In this document: positions 1,422 to 30,742 of the stretch, in pieces | Layout: each line of letters begins with the position of its first letter | Numbering within the stretch: position 1 is the stretch's first letter | Assembly (NCBI GenBank): GCA_015233145.1 | Contig: JADFYI010000002.1 | Span: 120,858 to 184,857, forward strand | DNA from: Candidatus Omnitrophota bacterium | GTDB lineage: Bacteria > Omnitrophota > Gorgyraeia > Zapsychrales > Fredricksoniimonadaceae | Reading direction: 5' to 3' | DNA length: 64,000 nt | Program-made: the position numbers and the translations under genes | The notes under the pieces: model-generated | Seen by the model: the letters and a program-made list of their open reading frames with translations, nothing else | Told to the model about the DNA's origin: nothing | Database searches by the model: none

Positions 1422-3020
<1,599 letters not shown>

Positions 3021-3139: not shown

Positions 3140-3269
3140 TTGGAAGGATGGAGGAATCTCTCCTTCGCTCAGCGTTGCGTTCGCTGACAAGTTTAGAATT
3201 AAATAAAAAGAGCTCCCTTTATCAGCTCACTCCACAATTCGCTGCGGAGAGATTCCTCCACCCTTCCAA
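3140..3269. repeat. 130 bp element bounded by 24 bp inverted repeats (MITE-like element or long-stem structured RNA)
   Basis: TTGGAAGGATGGAGGAATCTCTCC (3140..3163) is the reverse complement of GGAGAGATTCCTCCACCCTTCCAA (3246..3269), 23/24 matches. The single mismatch is A.C on the plus strand but U.G on the minus-strand RNA. The interior holds hairpins TCAGCG/CGCTGA and GAGCT/AGCTC plus a U-run on the minus strand. Confidence 0.6.
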
Positions 3270-3284
3270 GGGCGCATTCCATGG

Positions 3285-4232
3285 CTAAATGCCCCACGCT
3301 GTTTCTATCTCTTTGCGGGAAGAAGAAAGAATATGAAAATAATCAAATTCCATTTCAATCATATCGTTATCTTTCTTCCTGAGCCACTCGGAAAGCCAGG
3401 CAAAACGAACGGCAATCACAAGATCCAAAAGGTGTTGAAAGCTGATGTCAGAATAAACACCTGCTCCCTTTAAAGTATGAACAAAATGAACCGCTGCCCC
3501 GTTTTTTAACCCTTCAGGGTCTTCGATCCCTAAGCAGGAGAGCATGTTGGCCGCGTCATAAAGCTCAGGCTTGTAGCCTAAAAACTCCCAATCAATCACC
3601 GCGGCCATGGCTTTATCCTGCCAAATAATGTTGACAGGGTGATAATCCCCGTGGCAAAAACCCGTCGGAAGATCAATATAAACAGGATAAAGGTATTTTT
3701 GGACATAGGAATAAATCGCATCTATTTGCGAAACGACATCCCTACGGCGCTTTCGAATAACACCCATCAACTCATCAATATAGGCTGGGAGAGAGAAAGA
3801 ATCCGTACTTTTAAAAAACGGGATGCCTTGGGAAGCAAAATGAAGCGCTGTTAAGAATTCGCCAGCAACAATCCCCCGCCAATCGTCAAAGATATATTCC
3901 GGACGATTAAGTTCAACTCCCACAACAAACGGCACAACCTGCCAAAAGAAGTCCTCTGCTTTCACAAGAAACAGGCCTTGGGACGAGTCTAAATAAGGAG
4001 TTATGGGAGAAAGTTTTTGTGCCTTTAAGAATTGAAGGGCCTGGGCAATGCGCTGTTTATGTTCTAAAAGGCGGGGACTGACCTTTTCAACAACCAGAAG
4101 CGCGCCTTTGACAGTTTCAACAACGACGCGATAATCCGTCCGCTCAGGGCTTCCGGCAATAAAGATTTCTGGACGAAGACATTTTGCTTCAATGTCCCAA
4201 AAGCGCAAAACATTGCGGATTTGATCAAGCAC
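3285..4232 (-). CDS. phosphotransferase-family small-molecule/protein kinase (APH / choline kinase / homoserine kinase type II-like)
   Basis: 315 aa. Brenner motif HGDYHPVN and downstream VIDWEF are typical of the APH-fold kinase family. The substrate is not inferable. Confidence 0.75.
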   Translation of the reverse strand: MLDQIRNVLRFWDIEAKCLRPEIFIAGSPERTDYRVVVETVKGALLVVEKVSPRLLEHKQRIAQALQFLKAQKLSPITPYLDSSQGLFLVKAEDFFWQVVPFVVGVELNRPEYIFDDWRGIVAGEFLTALHFASQGIPFFKSTDSFSLPAYIDELMGVIRKRRRDVVSQIDAIYSYVQKYLYPVYIDLPTGFCHGDYHPVNIIWQDKAMAAVIDWEFLGYKPELYDAANMLSCLGIEDPEGLKNGAAVHFVHTLKGAGVYSDISFQHLLDLVIAVRFAWLSEWLRKKDNDMIEMEFDYFHILSSSRKEIETAWGI

Positions 4233-4968: not shown

Positions 4969-7530
<2,562 letters not shown>

Positions 7531-7538
7531 GATTTTTG

Positions 7539-9059
7539 TTATTTCTTAAATGCCAGTTTAAATTCCCCGACAGCTTTCTTAAGCGCCTCAGCGGTTTCGT
7601 CGGAAATATCTCCCGAAGAGTCAATGGTCTTTTCAAGGTCAGGATATTTCTGAGCAATAAACTGATAAAGCTCGACTTCAAAAGCCTTGATCTTCTCAAC
7701 CGGCAGATCATCCAGAAGCCCGTTAACACCGGAGAAAATCAGGATCACCTGTTTGGCCAGTGACAAAGGCACATACTGCCCCTGTTTTAAAATTTCCACA
7801 ATCCTCTCGCCGCGGTTGAGCTGGTCCTGGGTAGCCTTGTCAAGGTCGGAGCCAAACTGCAGGAATGTGACGAGCTCACGATACTGCGCCAGCTCCAGGC
7901 GCACCTTGCCGGCCACCTTACGCATGGCTTTTGCCTGGGCCTTGCCGCCGACACGCGACACTGAAAGGCCCACATTAATCGCTGGACGGATGCCGGAAAA
8001 GAAAAGGTCAGACTCAAGATAAATCTGGCCATCGGTAATCGAGATAACGTTTGTGGGGATGTAGCTCGTAATGTCACCCCCCTGTGTTTCAATAATGGGA
8101 AGCGCGGTTAAAGACCCTGCGCCCAAAGAATCAGACAACTTGGCGGAACGCTCCAGCAGGCGCGAATGAAGGTAGAAAATATCCCCTGGATACGCCTCGC
8201 GGCCCGGCGGACGGCGGAGCAAGAGCGCCAGCTGGCGGTAGGCCTGGGCATGCTTGGAAAGGTCATCATAAACAACCAAAACATCCTTGCCGTTATACAT
8301 AAATTCTTCGCCGATCGCACAGCCTGAATAAGGAGCCAGATACTGGGAAGACGCCGAAGCGCGGGATGATGCGCTGACAATGGTTGTATAATCCATGGCG
8401 CCATACTTCTTTAACGTTTCAGCAATCGCAACAATGCTCGAAATTTTTTGTCCAATAGCCACATAAACGCAAAAAACGCCCTTGCCTTTTTGATTGATAA
8501 TCGTATCAATGGCCACCGCTGTTTTTCCGGTCTGGCGGTCTCCGATAATGAGCTCACGCTGGCCTCGCCCGATGGGAATCATGGCATCCACAGCCTTAAT
8601 CCCGGTTTGCAATGGCGCATTGATGGGCTGGCGGGAAATGACGTCTGGCGCGTTAAATTCAATTGGACGGAATTTTTCTGTCACAATCGGGCCTTTGCCG
8701 TCAATGGGGCTGCCCAGGGCATTAACAACGCGGCCTATGAGGGCATCACCGACAGGAACCTGGACCACTTTTCCGGTCCGCTTGACAACATCACCCTCTT
8801 TAATTTTCTGGTCGGGATTGTCTTTTCCGAAAATAATAACACCGACACTGTCTTCTTCAAGGTTAACGGCCATGCCCAAAACATTATTGGGGAACTCAAT
8901 GATTTCATTAACCATGACGTCATCCAGGCCGTAAACACGGGCAATGGCATCCCCCACCTGGATAACCGTGCCCACAGATTCGGTCTTGAGCTGGCTGGAA
9001 AAATTCTCGAGCTCGCTTTTAATAATCGAAGAAATTTCCTCGGGTCTTAAATTACTCAT
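7539..9059 (-). CDS. atpA: F1 ATP synthase alpha subunit
   Basis: 506 aa with Walker A GDRQTGKT. Confidence 0.97.
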
Positions 9060-9604: not shown

Positions 9605-10097
9605 GAGGCTTATCCAGTTCCGTCAAGATGCCTTCAATGATTTTCTTGTCGTTCTCAAAAGAAAGTTTTTCCTGAATCATGTGCTCTGTGGCGCTGATGA
9701 CCATTTCAACAATTTCAGTCTTAAGGACTTCACGGGATTTGGCGAACTCAAAAGTGATTTCTTTCTTGGCATCAGCAACAATTCGCTCAGCCTCCTGGCG
9801 GGCATGCTCACGGATTTCCTGGGCCTTGACCTCACCCATGGCCTCATACTCCTTGAGGCGTTTTTTCGAAATCTCCTCAACCTTGCTTAAAAAGGTTTCA
9901 TATTCCCCCTTAAGCCTGGCCACTTCGAGCCTTGTTGTTTCAATGGCCTTGAGCTCGCCCTCAACCTTGGAACGGCGATCTTCGAGGACTTTAAAAATCT
10001 TCGTCCAAAGAAGATGCTTTAAAAGAAAATAAACCAAAGCAAAGCAAACAACCTGAGCCACAATCAATTTAAAATCTAGGAGTTTTAAAAGTTCCAT
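9597..10097 (-). CDS. atpF: Fo ATP synthase b subunit
   Basis: 166 aa with a single N-terminal TM and a long charged helix. Confidence 0.85.
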   Translation of the reverse strand: MELLKLLDFKLIVAQVVCFALVYFLLKHLLWTKIFKVLEDRRSKVEGELKAIETTRLEVARLKGEYETFLSKVEEISKKRLKEYEAMGEVKAQEIREHARQEAERIVADAKKEITFEFAKSREVLKTEIVEMVISATEHMIQEKLSFENDKKIIEGILTELDKPHA

Positions 10098-11218: not shown

Positions 11219-11283
11219 ATTAGGGACACAACCTTTACCCCAACTGCCTGATGGCGTAAATGAATAAAAGTTGTGTCCCTAAT
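11219..11283 (-). promoter_or_regulatory. 14 bp perfect stem-loop in the atp operon 5' UTR
   Basis: ATTAGGGACACAAC (11219..11232) pairs with GTTGTGTCCCTAAT (11270..11283), with a 37 nt loop. It ends 18 nt upstream of the atpB ATG. Confidence 0.5.
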
Positions 11284-11386: not shown

Positions 11387-11728
11387 TCACCCTATGGCAA
11401 TTCCGCCGCGCTCCTCCGTGCGGATGCGGATGCACTGCTCTAACGGCAGGATAAAAATTTTGCCGTCCCCTGTTTCACCGGTCTTGGCGCCCTTAATGAT
11501 CGCCTTGACAGTGGCTTCGGCAAAATTATCATTCACGGCAATCTCAAGGCGGACCTTGCGAAGCAAGTTCCCATGCTCCCTGGCGCCGCGGTAAACCTCG
11601 GTCACGCCTTTCTGGCGGCCATGGCCTAACACTTCACTCACGGTAATCAAATTAATCTCAGCCTTGTACAACTGCTCCTTGACCTCTTCCAACCTGCTCG
11701 GTTGTATAATGGCGATAATAAGTTTCAT
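11387..11728 (-). CDS. glnK: nitrogen regulatory protein P-II (GlnK)
   Basis: 113 aa from [10 protein letters not shown] (ATG 11728, GGAGG SD). The T-loop is [13 protein letters not shown] and the family motif [10 protein letters not shown] is present. The track ORF 11387..11788 carries a spurious 20 aa N-terminal extension that overlaps amtB. Confidence 0.93.
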
Positions 11729-11759
11729 GATATCCTCCGTATTTCTATTCCAAAATGGT

Positions 11760-12986
11760 TTATTCCAACATCGTATAAGCACGCTCATGATGCTGCGTCA
11801 GGTCAAGGCCGACATCCTCATCTTTCGGGCTCACCTTCATGCCCATGACCAGGTCAACCACCTTGAAAATAACCGCAGTCACAATCCCCGAATAAATTAA
11901 AGTGACAGCCACAGCCTTAATCTGAATCAGAAACTGCGCAGGATTGCCAAAAAACAACCCGTCATTACCTGCCGAATTCACAAACTTTGTGGCAAAAAGG
12001 CCTGTTGCCAAAGCCCCCCAGATACCACCAACACAGTGGACGCCGAAAGCATCAAGCGCATCATCATAACCAAGCTGCGGCTTGATGACAACAGCAGCAA
12101 AGTAGCAGAACACGCTGACCAAAAGCCCAATGATAACAGCACCTCCGACATTCACAAACCCGGCTGCAGGTGTAATGGCCACCAATCCCGCCACAGCTCC
12201 GGAACAAACACCGAACATCGTCGGCTTACCGCCGCGAACCCACTCAATAATAGCCCAGCTTAAACCTGCTGCTGCTGCCGCAGTGTTTGTGACCACAAAA
12301 GCATTGGTCGCAAGGCCATTGGCTGCCAGGGCTGAACCTGCGTTAAACCCAAACCATCCGAACCACAAAAGAGCAGTCCCGAGCACAATAAAAGGAACAT
12401 TGTGAGGTGCTGGAACATGCTTATCCGTATTTTTACGACGGCCAAGCATGATGGCCATGACCAAAGCCGCAATACCTGCGTTAATATGAACCACAGTACC
12501 GCCAGCGAAATCCAGAGCCCCTAAATCGCGAAGGAATCCGCCCATGCCCCACACCCAATGGCAAACCGGCGCATAAACAAAAGTCAACCACAGAGTAATA
12601 AAAACTAAGAACGAAGAAAACTTCATCCTTTCCGCAAAACCACCGATGATCAAAGCCGGGGTAATGACCGCGAACATGGCCTGAAAAATCATAAAGGCCT
12701 GATGCGGAATTGTGGCAGAGTAATCATTATAGGGTTCCAGGCTGACACCGTTGAGCATCCACCACTGAAACCCGCCCCAAAAACTCTTGCCTGGCGCAAA
12801 AGCCAGACTATACCCATAAATCACCCATAAAACACTGACCAGGCACAACACAATCATGCACTGCATTAAAACACTCAAAACATTCTTCCTTCTCACCATG
12901 CCTCCGTAAAAAAAGGCCAACCCTGGTGTCATTAACATGACCAGCGCCGTTGAAACAAGTACCCAAGCTGTATCTCCTGCATTCAT
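11760..12986 (-). CDS. amtB: ammonium transporter AmtB
   Basis: 408 aa with the twin-His pore motifs [10 protein letters not shown] and [18 protein letters not shown] precedes the ATG. Confidence 0.95.
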
Positions 12987-13010
12987 AGTAAACTCCTTTT
13001 TTAATCTACA

Positions 13011-13063
13011 TTAAAAAATAAAAATGGCGTCTTCGAACCAATCCTTGTTGGTCTGAAGACGCC
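13011..13063 (-). terminator. intrinsic terminator inside the amtB leader
   Basis: Minus-strand stem GGCGUCUUCAGACCAA / UUGGUUCGAAGACGCC (13063..13048 / 13041..13026; 16 positions with 1 mismatch and 1 G.U), a 6 nt loop, then AUUUUUAUUUUUU (13025..13013). Confidence 0.7.
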
Positions 13064-13077
13064 TTCGTCTTAAATCT

Positions 13078-13177
13078 TCTAAAGCTTCTTTACTTTATGC
13101 TCTCGGGCTGCTTAGCCCGTTTCTTTCACGGCCTTTTCGGCCGTGCTAGGACTCACAACTGTGTGAATCCGCTTAGA
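13078..13177 (-). promoter_or_regulatory. candidate aptamer-like four-way-junction RNA fold in the amtB-glnK leader (class unknown)
   Basis: P1 is UCUAAGC (13177..13171) with GCUUUAGA (13085..13078). P2 is 13170..13149 (9 bp, loop CAGU), P3 is 13145..13127 (7 bp, loop GAAAA) and P4 is 13119..13104 (6 bp, loop AAGC). It starts at the predicted TSS and is followed by the terminator. Confidence 0.4.
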
Positions 13178-13184
13178 TAATTTA

Positions 13185-13213
13185 AATATATACCTCCACG
13201 GAAAAAATATCAA
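13185..13213 (-). promoter_or_regulatory. sigma70-like promoter driving the amtB leader
   Basis: Minus strand TTGATA (13213..13208), a 17 nt spacer, then TATATT (13190..13185), with an A/T-rich UP-like region upstream. Confidence 0.5.
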
Positions 13214-13284
13214 GTGCTAAAATAAAAAACTTCCCGTCGAGAAAGAAATATTTTTAAAAAACTGAAATAAATTAAAGCATTATT

Positions 13285-13437
13285 GGTAGCTCCTAAAGCC
13301 CCGGGGCGCTATTGCGCCCCTGGTGGCTTTAGGAGTTATTTCGCAAAAATCTTTGCGAAATAACATCCGCCCCACTACCGAACACACCCCTTAAATCCTT
13401 TCTCCCCCTACGGAGAAAGCGCGTGTTCCAACGGATG
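13285..13437. ncRNA. unassigned structured element (multi-helix RNA or palindrome cluster) downstream of spoVG
   Basis: Helix A is 13290..13300/13325..13335 plus a GC core at 13303..13309/13314..13320. Helix B is a perfect 12 bp stem at 13336..13347/13352..13363. Helix C has nested pairings at 13364..13369/13432..13437, 13380..13385/13423..13428 and 13398..13405/13412..13419. Confidence 0.35.
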
Positions 13438-13450
13438 CTAAAATCAAAAA

Positions 13451-13717
13451 TCAATTAGAATTATTCTGATAATATTCAATCACGAGACGAGAAAGATCCT
13501 CATAAACTCCAGCAGACTTGCAAACCACCCGGTCATACCAGCGCTCGTCTTTTCCCAACTCCTGGGGCATGGACACAAAAATTCCTTTTTTTCCTGCCAC
13601 AACCCGCACACCCTTAATCACAAGGGCATCATTCACAGAAACATCTGCAAATGCTTTTAAGCCCCCGGCATCAGGTAAACGAACCATTTTCTCAACCTTA
13701 AAACTAATGCTCCCCAT
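13451..13717 (-). CDS. spoVG: SpoVG family protein
   Basis: 88 aa. The segment ...GGLKAFADVSVNDALVIKGVRVVAGKKGIFVSMPQ is typical of SpoVG. Confidence 0.9.
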   Translation of the reverse strand: MGSISFKVEKMVRLPDAGGLKAFADVSVNDALVIKGVRVVAGKKGIFVSMPQELGKDERWYDRVVCKSAGVYEDLSRLVIEYYQNNSN

Positions 13718-13738
13718 ATTTCCCGCTCCTTTTTTATT

Positions 13739-13963
13739 TTAACCAATTTTTTCTTCATCAGCACAGACCACTTCATATAAGCTGACCAAAGCCCTGTCTT
13801 TCAATTCACTGCTAACAGCTTCTTTAATGCCAGGGTCACGCTTCTCTATTAATGTCACATATTTTTCGAGAAAAGAAAGCATGGCTTCTATTCCAAGGCG
13901 CTCGCGCATATCTTTGAGAATAATCAATGTGGTATAAACAGAAACTTTGTTGCGATTTAGCAT
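13739..13963 (-). CDS. hypothetical small protein
   Basis: 74 aa ORF immediately upstream of spoVG. No family recognised. Confidence 0.5.
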   Translation of the reverse strand: MLNRNKVSVYTTLIILKDMRERLGIEAMLSFLEKYVTLIEKRDPGIKEAVSSELKDRALVSLYEVVCADEEKIG

Positions 13964-30100: not shown

Positions 30101-30742
30101 CTATTTCTCCATCTCCTCAGCCGGCTGCTTGGCAGCCTTGGGAAGAATAACAATCTCAACCCGACGATTTTTCTGGCGGCCTTCTTTGGAGTCATTCGAC
30201 GCCATCGGGTGGTACTCGCCATACCCGGTTGCAGCCAAACGCTCAGGCGCGACATCTTTCTCAATCAAATAATGAAGAACGCTCAAAGCCCGCGCAGAAG
30301 AAAGCTCCCAGTTGCTTTTCCAGCTGGAATGCTTAATCGGTTCATTATCCGTATGCCCCTCAACACCGACATTGAGATCAACAACCGTTGTCTTTAAAAC
30401 AGAAGAGACTTTCTCAAGCTTCTGCAAAGAATCATCCTTAAGATCAGCCTTGCCTGAATCAAAAAGGACCTCGGCCACAAAGGTAATAACAAGCCCCTTT
30501 TCGAGCATTTCAACCTTGACCTCTTTGTCTGAAATTTCCTTGGAAAGGCGGTCTTCCAGCTCTTTTTTGGCGCGCTCGAGCTCAGAAAGTTCGTTTTTCA
30601 GGCGCGATATTTTTTCCACATCCACCCTGCGGCCTTTCTGAAAAATAACAGTGCAGCCCGAAAAAGATATGGCAAGAATTACCGTCGAGAAAATAATCAG
30701 AAAATTGAACACACCCCTGGACATCTTCGCCTCCTTTTTCAA
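30101..30742 (-). CDS. OmpA/MotB-family peptidoglycan-binding protein with coiled-coil segment (probable lipoprotein)
   Basis: 213 aa with the lipobox-like ISFSGC. OmpA_C motifs are GHTDNEPI and NRRVEIVI. Confidence 0.85.
   Translation of the reverse strand: MKKEAKMSRGVFNFLIIFSTVILAISFSGCTVIFQKGRRVDVEKISRLKNELSELERAKKELEDRLSKEISDKEVKVEMLEKGLVITFVAEVLFDSGKADLKDDSLQKLEKVSSVLKTTVVDLNVGVEGHTDNEPIKHSSWKSNWELSSARALSVLHYLIEKDVAPERLAATGYGEYHPMASNDSKEGRQKNRRVEIVILPKAAKQPAEEMEK

Follow-up and report, generated by a model that had tools for sequence, protein, structure and literature searches.

A candidate RNA motif at the 3′ end of spoVG in Omnitrophota, with two lineage-specific hairpins in the spacer before amtB

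Intrinsic (Rho-independent) terminators lie at operon ends, and some, which combine an A-tract, a hairpin and a U-tract, are bidirectional. The terminator hairpin of a 3′ untranslated region (3′ UTR) can also be a protein-binding module, as in recognition of the Hfq, ProQ or CsrA type. Riboswitch and attenuator aptamers are built of nested helices with conserved nucleotides in the internal loops, and their closing stem also serves as a terminator. Near-perfect palindromes between genes are known from repetitive extragenic palindromic and bacterial interspersed mosaic elements (REP/BIME), including mRNA-stabilising REP elements, and from miniature inverted-repeat transposable elements (MITEs). 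Here these systems are compared with a cluster of three helices, A, B and C, located between spoVG and the amtB promoter in a 64-kb stretch of DNA from Candidatus Omnitrophota bacterium (assembly GCA_015233145.1, contig JADFYI010000002.1, positions 120,858 to 184,857), which is called the window in this work.

Helix C is a compound hairpin, the spoVG-3′ motif, with the operon-end position and the GC-rich, freely covarying closing stem of an intrinsic terminator; in most relatives a U-tract comes after this stem, and often an A-tract before it. The motif differs from a terminator of this kind in its length of 80–110 nt, its two internal loops, its apical hairpin and an interior that is conserved amid randomised spacers; moreover, the closing stem is weak and the U-tract degraded in the window, and neither helix A nor helix B is followed by a U-tract when read in the sense direction. 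As in 3′-UTR protein-binding modules, the motif is structured at the mRNA 3′ end, with a terminator-like stem and purine-rich unpaired segments as possible contacts. Unlike small RNAs derived from 3′ UTRs, it has no conserved single-stranded seed upstream, and a GGA found in most copies is lacking from the window copy and from that of L032, a 535-kb JGI contig with the same spoVG–amtB junction. It resembles aptamers in its nested helices, conserved loop nucleotides and double use of the closing stem, but it is always 3′ of spoVG and not in a 5′ leader, the downstream genes are unrelated, and no Rfam family matches. Helices A and B resemble REP/BIME and MITEs as near-perfect intergenic palindromes after a gene, but the multi-copy dispersal that defines those elements was not found for them in the sequence searched.

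We propose, with a probability of about 0.6, that the cluster is composite: helix C would be the 3′-terminal structure of spoVG, and hairpins B and A lineage-specific back-up barriers behind it. A first-pass annotation of this DNA had treated the 155 nt as a single element. That view is not supported: relatives keep helix C alone, one third of the cluster, and L032, too, is without a counterpart of A or B.

The spoVG-3′ motif and its conservation

The spoVG loci compared came from GTDB genomes (L006-L014), exact-protein look-ups (L016-L040) and JGI metagenomes (L041-L090). In a clade of Omnitrophota, about 18 distinct sequences have a homologue of helix C 3′ of the stop codon of spoVG. It is located 3–27 nt past the stop codon in L006, L007, L009, L010, L011, L012, L016, L017-31, L035, L036-39, L040, L041, L043, L045, L049, L050 and L051; the exception is L032-34, where the distance is 153 nt. 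The alignment holds 18 distinct copies (15 once near-duplicates are removed), every one of them 3′ of spoVG. The genes downstream are unrelated across loci and encode a convergent SNF transporter, a Ser/Thr kinase, an RHS protein, pilins, SerS or AmtB; because they vary, the motif belongs to the spoVG 3′ end. The gene order of L032 is that of the window (spoIID, response regulator/HTH, small ORF, spoVG, amtB, glnB, atp). Its 153 nt between the spoVG stop codon and the motif (5268-5420) have hairpins of their own, and an open reading frame (ORF) of 56 aa is called between the motif and amtB.

Two covariance models were built, R1 from 11 copies and R2 from 18, and run over spoVG loci from Omnitrophota and other sources (364 kb, 140 kb and 443 kb). 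They gave exactly one match per locus, always after spoVG, and the match in the window scored 56.6 bits with R1 and 53.7 bits with R2 (E ~1e-8). After spoVG in L008, L014, L046, L048, L053, L054, L055 and L064, and in every locus whose SpoVG is below 50% identity, the motif is missing; L046 and L053 have a simple GC hairpin in its place. A divergent variant in L013 (1748-1870) and L056 (~2766-2885) is missed by both models, so the family may be wider than they show. The outer stem of this variant is UAUUAUUCG.AGUGCCC paired with GGGC.C..CGAAUAAUA plus a U-run, and its inner hairpin is followed by GGGGG.

Each copy is a nested arrangement of P1, an internal loop, P2, a G-rich internal loop and P3. 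On the minus strand of the window, P1 pairs UAGCAUCCG (13440-13432) with CGGAUGUUA (13369-13361), P2 pairs GAACACGC (13428-13421) with GUGUGUUC (13387-13380), and P3 pairs CUUUCUCC (13419-13412) with GGAGAAAG (13405-13398) around the loop GUAGGG. The G-rich junction J3/2 is GAUUUAAGGG (13397-13388) and J2/1 is GGUAGUGGGG (13379-13370). The window copy can thus be written GCAUCCG-UUG-GAACACGC-G-CUUUCUCC-GUAGGG-GGAGAAAG-GAUUUAAGGG-GUGUGUUC-GGUAGUGGGG-CGGAUGU, beside that of L007, GGGCGCCCGG-GUAUA-GACAUGC-GC-UUCUCCC-UGGC-GGGGGAAGG-CUUUUGGGG-GCGUGUC-UGGAGAAGCA-CCGGGCGCCC.

Covariation was measured over the 18 distinct rows, with partners slid by 1–3 columns as controls. Paired cells amount to 84%, against 46–57% in the slid controls, and the covariation score is 0.49 against 0.13–0.19; changes on both sides occur in 17 of 26 pairs. 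All 11 pairs of P1 covary, with 95% pairing, and double changes are seen in three pairs each of P2 and P3. P2 sequences are diverse (GACAUGC, AAAAAUUGC, GGGUAUGCG, GAACACGC and others), yet the fold is recovered, and single-sequence folding gives the nested P1-P2-P3 as the minimum free energy (MFE) structure or close to it in nearly all copies.

The functional strand, which the first-pass annotation had left open, is the minus strand, that is, the sense strand of spoVG. It is fixed by the conserved G–U pairs and by the scores of the covariance models: U–G pairs occupy fixed positions of P2 and P3 in 13–14 of the 18 rows and would be C–A mismatches on the opposite strand, and the models score 42–88 bits in the sense direction against at most 24 bits antisense at the same sites. 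In the window, P2 has 8 bp on the minus strand, one of them the G–U at 13422/13386, and 6 bp on the plus strand, and the motif folds at −34.6 kcal/mol (minus) against −21.0 kcal/mol (plus).

The interior is also conserved in sequence. The 5′ strand of P3 is all pyrimidine and the 3′ strand all purine, and the junction after P3 is almost always (U)GGGG(G/U)GCG, with UGGGG conserved. J2/1 is purine-rich in all copies and includes GGA in 16 of the 18 aligned sequences, the exceptions being the window and L032. Mean pairwise identity reaches 0.63–0.65 in P3 and J3/2 against 0.32 in J1/2, and beyond the motif the spacers of the window and L032 do not align at all. The identity of the interior between flanks that cannot be aligned indicates sequence constraint, and not merely slow divergence.

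The first-pass annotation had described a structured RNA without an assigned family, which agrees with the database searches. None of the 4227 families of Rfam 15 reaches its gathering threshold anywhere in the window; in E-value mode, positions 12900-13800 returned chance-level matches only (E of at least 0.1), and Rfam gave no match on the helix C motif in the loci of six relatives. ARAGORN found no tRNA or tmRNA gene in the window. Literature searches on spoVG or Omnitrophota RNA motifs returned nothing relevant, neither a paper on the helix C motif nor one on Omnitrophota RNA biology. By the usual standards of repeated context, covariation and strand specificity, the spoVG-3′ motif is a new candidate RNA motif. 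It is possible, at somewhat less than even odds, that helix C founds an uncatalogued RNA family restricted to Omnitrophota, in which the G-rich loops would be a binding site within a terminator or a 3′-UTR-derived RNA.

Other known structures were tried for helix C and rejected. A G-quadruplex would need four tracts of at least three G, which are not conserved (e.g. in the window, L010, L012 and L036); J2/1 is too long for a K-turn; a selenocysteine insertion sequence (SECIS) or other recoding signal does not fit stop codons that vary (TAA, TAG, TGA) and after which no ORF continues; and an integron attC site lacks its R′/R″ cores and an integrase. The loops of helix C do not fit an ANTAR dual hairpin, whereas the amtB leader, described below, does.

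Terminator shape and the conserved interior

Across copies P1 is a GC-rich stem of 9–19 bp at the operon 3′ end. In the 9 nt past its GC part, 10 of the 16 distinct copies have at least six U, and an A-tract is often found on the 5′ side of the motif, e.g. AAAGGGGCG...CGCCCCUUUUCUUUUU; in L009 the U-tract is present once the outer stem is counted. With P1 followed by a U-tract in most genomes, the motif has the shape of an intrinsic terminator of the spoVG operon. The opinion that the cluster has more structure than a terminator needs is weakened accordingly, although the conserved interior is more than a plain terminator would need.

P1 of the window is short (9 bp) and AU-rich, and its U-tract is degraded, with five U in the 9 nt past the stem (TTATTTCGC); L007 has four and L011 three. 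These poor U-tails are followed by extra hairpins of −14.7 kcal/mol in L007, −27.9 in L011 and −39.3 in the window, and that of L007 has its own U-run after it. A scan for consensus terminators called neither the motif nor helix A nor helix B.

In the mechanism that we propose, helix C on the minus strand would be the 3′-terminal structure of the spoVG operon mRNA. P1 with its usual U-tract would act as an intrinsic terminator and as a block to 3′ exonucleases, as its anatomy suggests. The conserved interior (P3, the UGGGG junction and the purine-rich J2/1) would most likely dock an RNA-binding protein, judging from the constraint on its unpaired nucleotides, and the docked protein would set how stable the spoVG message is or how efficiently it terminates. 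On speculation, SpoVG itself could be that protein. Whether the interior marks a real regulatory interaction between RNA and protein is a point on which our confidence is tentative and falls a little below one half.

A different interpretation makes the motif a functional RNA domain, such as a docking RNA or sponge for proteins, a 3′-UTR-derived small RNA or a ligand-responsive element, with termination as mere packaging. It would account for the conservation in sequence of the unpaired UGGGG junction, the G-rich P3 loop and the purine-rich J2/1, for the conserved specific G–U pairs, and for the persistence of the motif in L007, L011 and the window, despite the loss of the U-tract and the presence of a further hairpin downstream, and in L032 at 153 nt from the stop codon. 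Against this, every copy is at the end of a spoVG operon, most have a U-tract, and termination is the simplest function; there is no conserved single-stranded seed outside the hairpin, the window and L032 are without the GGA of J2/1, no protein or ligand partner can be named, and the variable downstream genes speak against a read-through switch. We regard this interpretation as unlikely.

Helices A and B and the cluster as a whole

The base-by-base check found all the helix pairings of the first-pass annotation, including the three tiers of helix C at 13364-13369/13432-13437, 13380-13385/13423-13428 and 13398-13405/13412-13419. A region of 181 nt folds at −84.5 kcal/mol (z = −8.7) on the minus strand and −77.9 kcal/mol (z = −10.2) on the plus strand, and on neither strand was any of 200 shuffles as good. 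In a GC-corrected scan of the whole 64 kb with a sliding 120-nt frame, the cluster is the top local-fold outlier on both strands, with residual z of −6.4 and −6.6, the next region having −4.6.

GGTAG at 13285-13289 is complementary to CTACC at 13375-13379, and the first-pass annotation had read the pair as a pseudoknot or an alternative fold. On the minus strand the MFE fold does include GGUAG/CUACC, and a fold in which P1 is forced has −83.6 kcal/mol. With a gap of 0.9 kcal/mol, the pairing is an iso-energetic alternative and not a demonstrated pseudoknot. L032 has an identical J2/1 (GGUAGUGGGG) without helix A or B, so the CUACC partner is not conserved. The same results bear on the idea of a single structured non-coding RNA that spans all 155 nt, with three helices and a pseudoknot. 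It gains from an MFE fold that joins the parts through GGUAG/CUACC and from this being the best-folding stretch in the window; conservation limited to helix C, the state of L032, the slight gain in energy of that clamp over the conserved P1 fold and the want of a matching Rfam family make it highly improbable.

Helix A has an outer stem of CTCCTAAAGCC (13290-13300) and GGCTTTAGGAG (13325-13335) and a core of GGGGCGC (13303-13309) and GCGCCCC (13314-13320). The 12-bp stem of helix B, TTATTTCGCAAA (13336-13347) with TTTGCGAAATAA (13352-13363), is extended to 13 bp with 100% complementarity by an inverted-repeat search, and helix B shares its first bases with the 3′ strand of P1 and the would-be U-rich tail of the motif. 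Both are perfect Watson–Crick palindromes, lineage-specific and strand-symmetric, with no G–U pairs and energies on the two strands of −39.3/−41.5 kcal/mol for A and −15.5/−15.8 kcal/mol for B. What comes after the hairpins on the minus strand is CUCCUAAAG for B and CUACCAAUAAUG for A, in neither case a U-tract; past helix A on the plus strand the sequence reads TTATTT (UUAUUU).

Pattern searches found no copy of helix A or B elsewhere in the window or in 102 loci of relatives, and L032 lacks both. No second copy of any part of the cluster was found within the window by repeat and pattern searches, the 181 nt had no BLASTN match among plasmids and phages, and helix A had no match in the viral contigs of IMG/VR. 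The first-pass annotation had considered a dispersed repeat family, which the cluster is not within the window, the 102 loci and the plasmid and phage collections. Half-sites of helix B occur three times in the window, against 3.5 expected by chance, with no other full copy. The helix B pattern was also met in 11 IMG/VR contigs, in some of them inside phage genes, and these matches were judged to be chance or unrelated contexts. In the comparison with L032, no clean insertion edge and no flanking direct repeat were seen around helices A and B, and the spacer does not align. In the sequence covered, A and B fail the tests for sense-strand terminators, operators and repeats.

Two other origins of A and B have to be weighed with these results. 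As DNA operators of a dimeric regulator at the amtB promoter (or of spoVG), they would be expected to look as they do in being perfect Watson–Crick palindromes without G–U pairs and of near-equal energy on both strands. The regulated promoter downstream of them has a conserved operator-like palindrome already, and TTTTTGCGCA and TTGCGG repeats upstream of the amtB promoters of L004 and L011 are loosely like the helix B arm TTTGCGAAA. However, neither palindrome is found upstream of amtB in L001, L003, L004, L009, L011 or L032, half-sites do not recur in the 64 kb, the centres, at ~134 and 171 bp ahead of the inferred start site, are distant for a sigma-70 activator, and 13-bp arms with a 4-bp spacer, or a 46-bp GC hairpin, are unlike typical operators; we hold this origin to be improbable.

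That A and B are a small palindromic insertion of mobile or repeat origin, like REP/BIME elements or MITEs, seems equally doubtful. Some 95 nt made of two perfect hairpins, present in this lineage only and in an otherwise freely evolving spacer, would agree with it; the perfection of the stems suggests a recent origin, and the window has further long, near-perfect hairpins between genes, at 3140-3269 and 11219-11283. Those hairpins share no sequence with A or B, however, no terminal inverted repeats or target-site duplication can be recognised, and no second copy was found in the 64 kb, the 102 loci, IMG/VR (helix A) or the plasmids and phages.

The remaining reading of A and B depends on the genes around them. 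In L009, L011 and L003-5 a convergent gene for an SNF transporter lies between spoVG and amtB, and it is missing in the window and L032, where spoVG consequently reads straight towards the amtB promoter. Together with the negative tests, this favours A and B as lineage-specific barriers in a labile spacer. In our proposal, the window motif, with its short P1 and degraded U-tract, would have been joined in the spacer by the perfect hairpins B and A, which would keep spoVG read-through out of the separately regulated amtB–glnB unit. The two helices are most plausibly, if on weak support, back-up barriers to transcription or to exonucleases.

Several observations weigh against the composite cluster and its mechanism. 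Helices A and B, having no U-tract on the minus strand, are not canonical intrinsic terminators in the direction of spoVG. Poor U-tails coincide with extra hairpins in three cases, and L051 has a good U-tail together with a strong downstream hairpin. Termination at the motif, and the position of the spoVG 3′ ends, are read from anatomy. Loci with SpoVG at 58–71% identity are without the motif (L008, L046, L048, L054, L055 and L064), which means that it is not obligatory. The covariation of P2 and P3 is modest in the automatic alignment, and the signal of P3 is partly sequence conservation instead of covariation. The docking partner of the interior is a candidate named on speculation, and published SpoVG binding sites are AT-rich, not G-rich.

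Some further palindromes were recorded during these searches. In two related IMG/VR contigs, L091 (3534, 12063, 12432) and L093 (1351, 1710, 10240), TTTCGCAAA-N4-TTTGCGAAA or close variants occur; the record name of L091 carries the label GVMAG (giant-virus metagenome-assembled genome). This palindrome is unrelated to the window and may be a viral regulatory repeat. In the window itself, the second-best fold is a long imperfect hairpin at 3140-3269, between ORFs 1422-3005(−) and 3285-4232(−), with a 24-bp stem of UUGGAAGGGUGGAGGAAUCUCUCC and GGAGAGAUUCCUCCAUCCUUCCAA, ~80 nt enclosed and −77 kcal/mol on the minus strand. A 19-bp hairpin with 95% complementarity (AUUAGGGACACAACCUUUA and UAAAAGUUGUGUCCCUAAU) occupies 11219-11283 in the glnB–atpB spacer, just upstream of the atpB start.

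Gene context, the amtB leader and significance

All relevant genes of this region are on the minus strand, spoVG and the amtB promoter being co-directional (Table 1). The spoVG ORF, stop codon included, ends 13 nt before the beginning of helix C. From the stop codon to the amtB −35 there are 237 nt, of which the cluster fills the first 155, and the spacer with helices A and B is bounded downstream by the amtB promoter.

Table 1. Position of the spoVG-3′ motif, the neighbouring hairpins and the surrounding genes in the window
Feature	Position	Strand	Description or basis
spoVG-3′ compound hairpin (helix C)	13360..13441	−	Covariance models R1 and R2; homologous copies 3′ of spoVG in relatives
Helix B	13335..13364		Perfect 13-bp AT-rich palindrome GTTATTTCGCAAA-N4-TTTGCGAAATAAC
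Helix A	13290..13335		20-bp GC-rich hairpin: 11 + 2 + 7 bp, two single-base bulges, loop TATT
CUACC, alternative fold partner	13285..13289	−	Pairs with GGUAG 13375-13379, in J2/1, displacing P1
Operator-like 13-bp near-palindrome	13231..13243		TTCCCGTCGAGAA; just upstream of amtB −35
amtB promoter, sigma-70-like	13185..13213	−	TTGATA-17-TATATT (promoter scan); kept in amtB loci of relatives
amtB leader	12987-13178	−	~190 nt, covarying hairpins
amtB	11760-12986	−	
glnB	11387-11788	−	ATP synthase operon downstream
spoVG coding sequence (88 aa)	13451..13717	−	ORF list; homologues with Pfam PF04026 SpoVG
74-aa ORF	13739-13963	−	First gene of the two-gene operon ending in spoVG
Promoter of the 74-aa ORF + spoVG operon, sigma-70-like	14045-14017	−	TTGACA-17-TATATT, 11/12 matches (promoter scan)

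The closest AmtB relatives (84–89% identity, L001-L005) keep the order amtB-glnB-atp, with a gene for a YHS protein or a divergent SNF transporter upstream instead. The amtB promoter and the leader are strongly conserved in these five loci, and no copy of the cluster is present upstream of their amtB, from which it follows that the cluster does not belong to amtB.

The first-pass annotation had placed a weak hairpin with a U-run at 13225-13247. This segment contains a conserved operator-like box, in its perfect form TTCTCGACGAGAA in L004/L005, identical to the window in L011, and in related forms in L009, L003 and L001. In these five other genomes the box precedes the amtB −35 by 20–27 nt, also in those with a divergent gene upstream, which makes an operator more likely than a terminator of spoVG; it is not found in L032. 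The box is probably the operator of a nitrogen regulator. A second match at 30679-30691, with one mismatch and inside an OmpA-like coding region, was set aside as probably due to chance. Upstream of the box, in the divergent SNF–amtB arrangement, L004 (~9640-9675) and L011 (~8990-9035) share CTTTTTGCGCA...TTGCGG(G)AAGCTG, which may be a second regulatory site.

The amtB–glnB leader was aligned from seven loci: L001 (9790-10000), L003 (2490-2745), L004 (9768-10000), L009 (12200-12431), L011 (9118-9358), L032 (5725-6028) and the window. Three conserved, covarying hairpins are present in it, together with an intrinsic terminator formed by GGCGUCUUCAGACC...GGUUCGAAGACGCC and a U-run (~13063-13010). 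A small hairpin of the form AGAC-(G/A)A(A/U)GGC-GUCU, which is AGAC-GAAGGC-GUCU in the window, overlaps the 5′ arm of the terminator. In its hexaloop, position 4 is G, and position 1 is A in five of the seven leaders (L001, L003, L009, L011 and L032). It matches the dual-hairpin rule for ANTAR targets (PMC3369931) and resembles the GnfR site of Geobacter, CAGGCAANGGCGCC (PMC2995071). The leader, which has no Rfam match, is probably an ANTAR-type antitermination leader, of a known kind and separate from the cluster; within the window, a crude search by motif revealed no ANTAR protein.

For the annotation of this region, a conserved RNA element on the minus strand of the spoVG 3′ end is set apart from lineage-specific palindromic filler, and 13225-13247 is re-read as a probable promoter operator. 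If the conserved interior had no function, the region would be an elaborate terminator with spacer hairpins, and ordinary. The motif exemplifies a terminator hairpin that carries extra conserved information. SpoVG is a widespread nucleic-acid-binding regulator, and the motif offers a concrete RNA for binding by SpoVG or another protein; a SpoVG site there would mean that a global nucleic-acid-binding protein is autoregulated through its 3′ UTR and that the element does more than terminate. Omnitrophota are uncultivated, and a covarying RNA linked to spoVG would be among the first candidate regulatory RNAs of the phylum.

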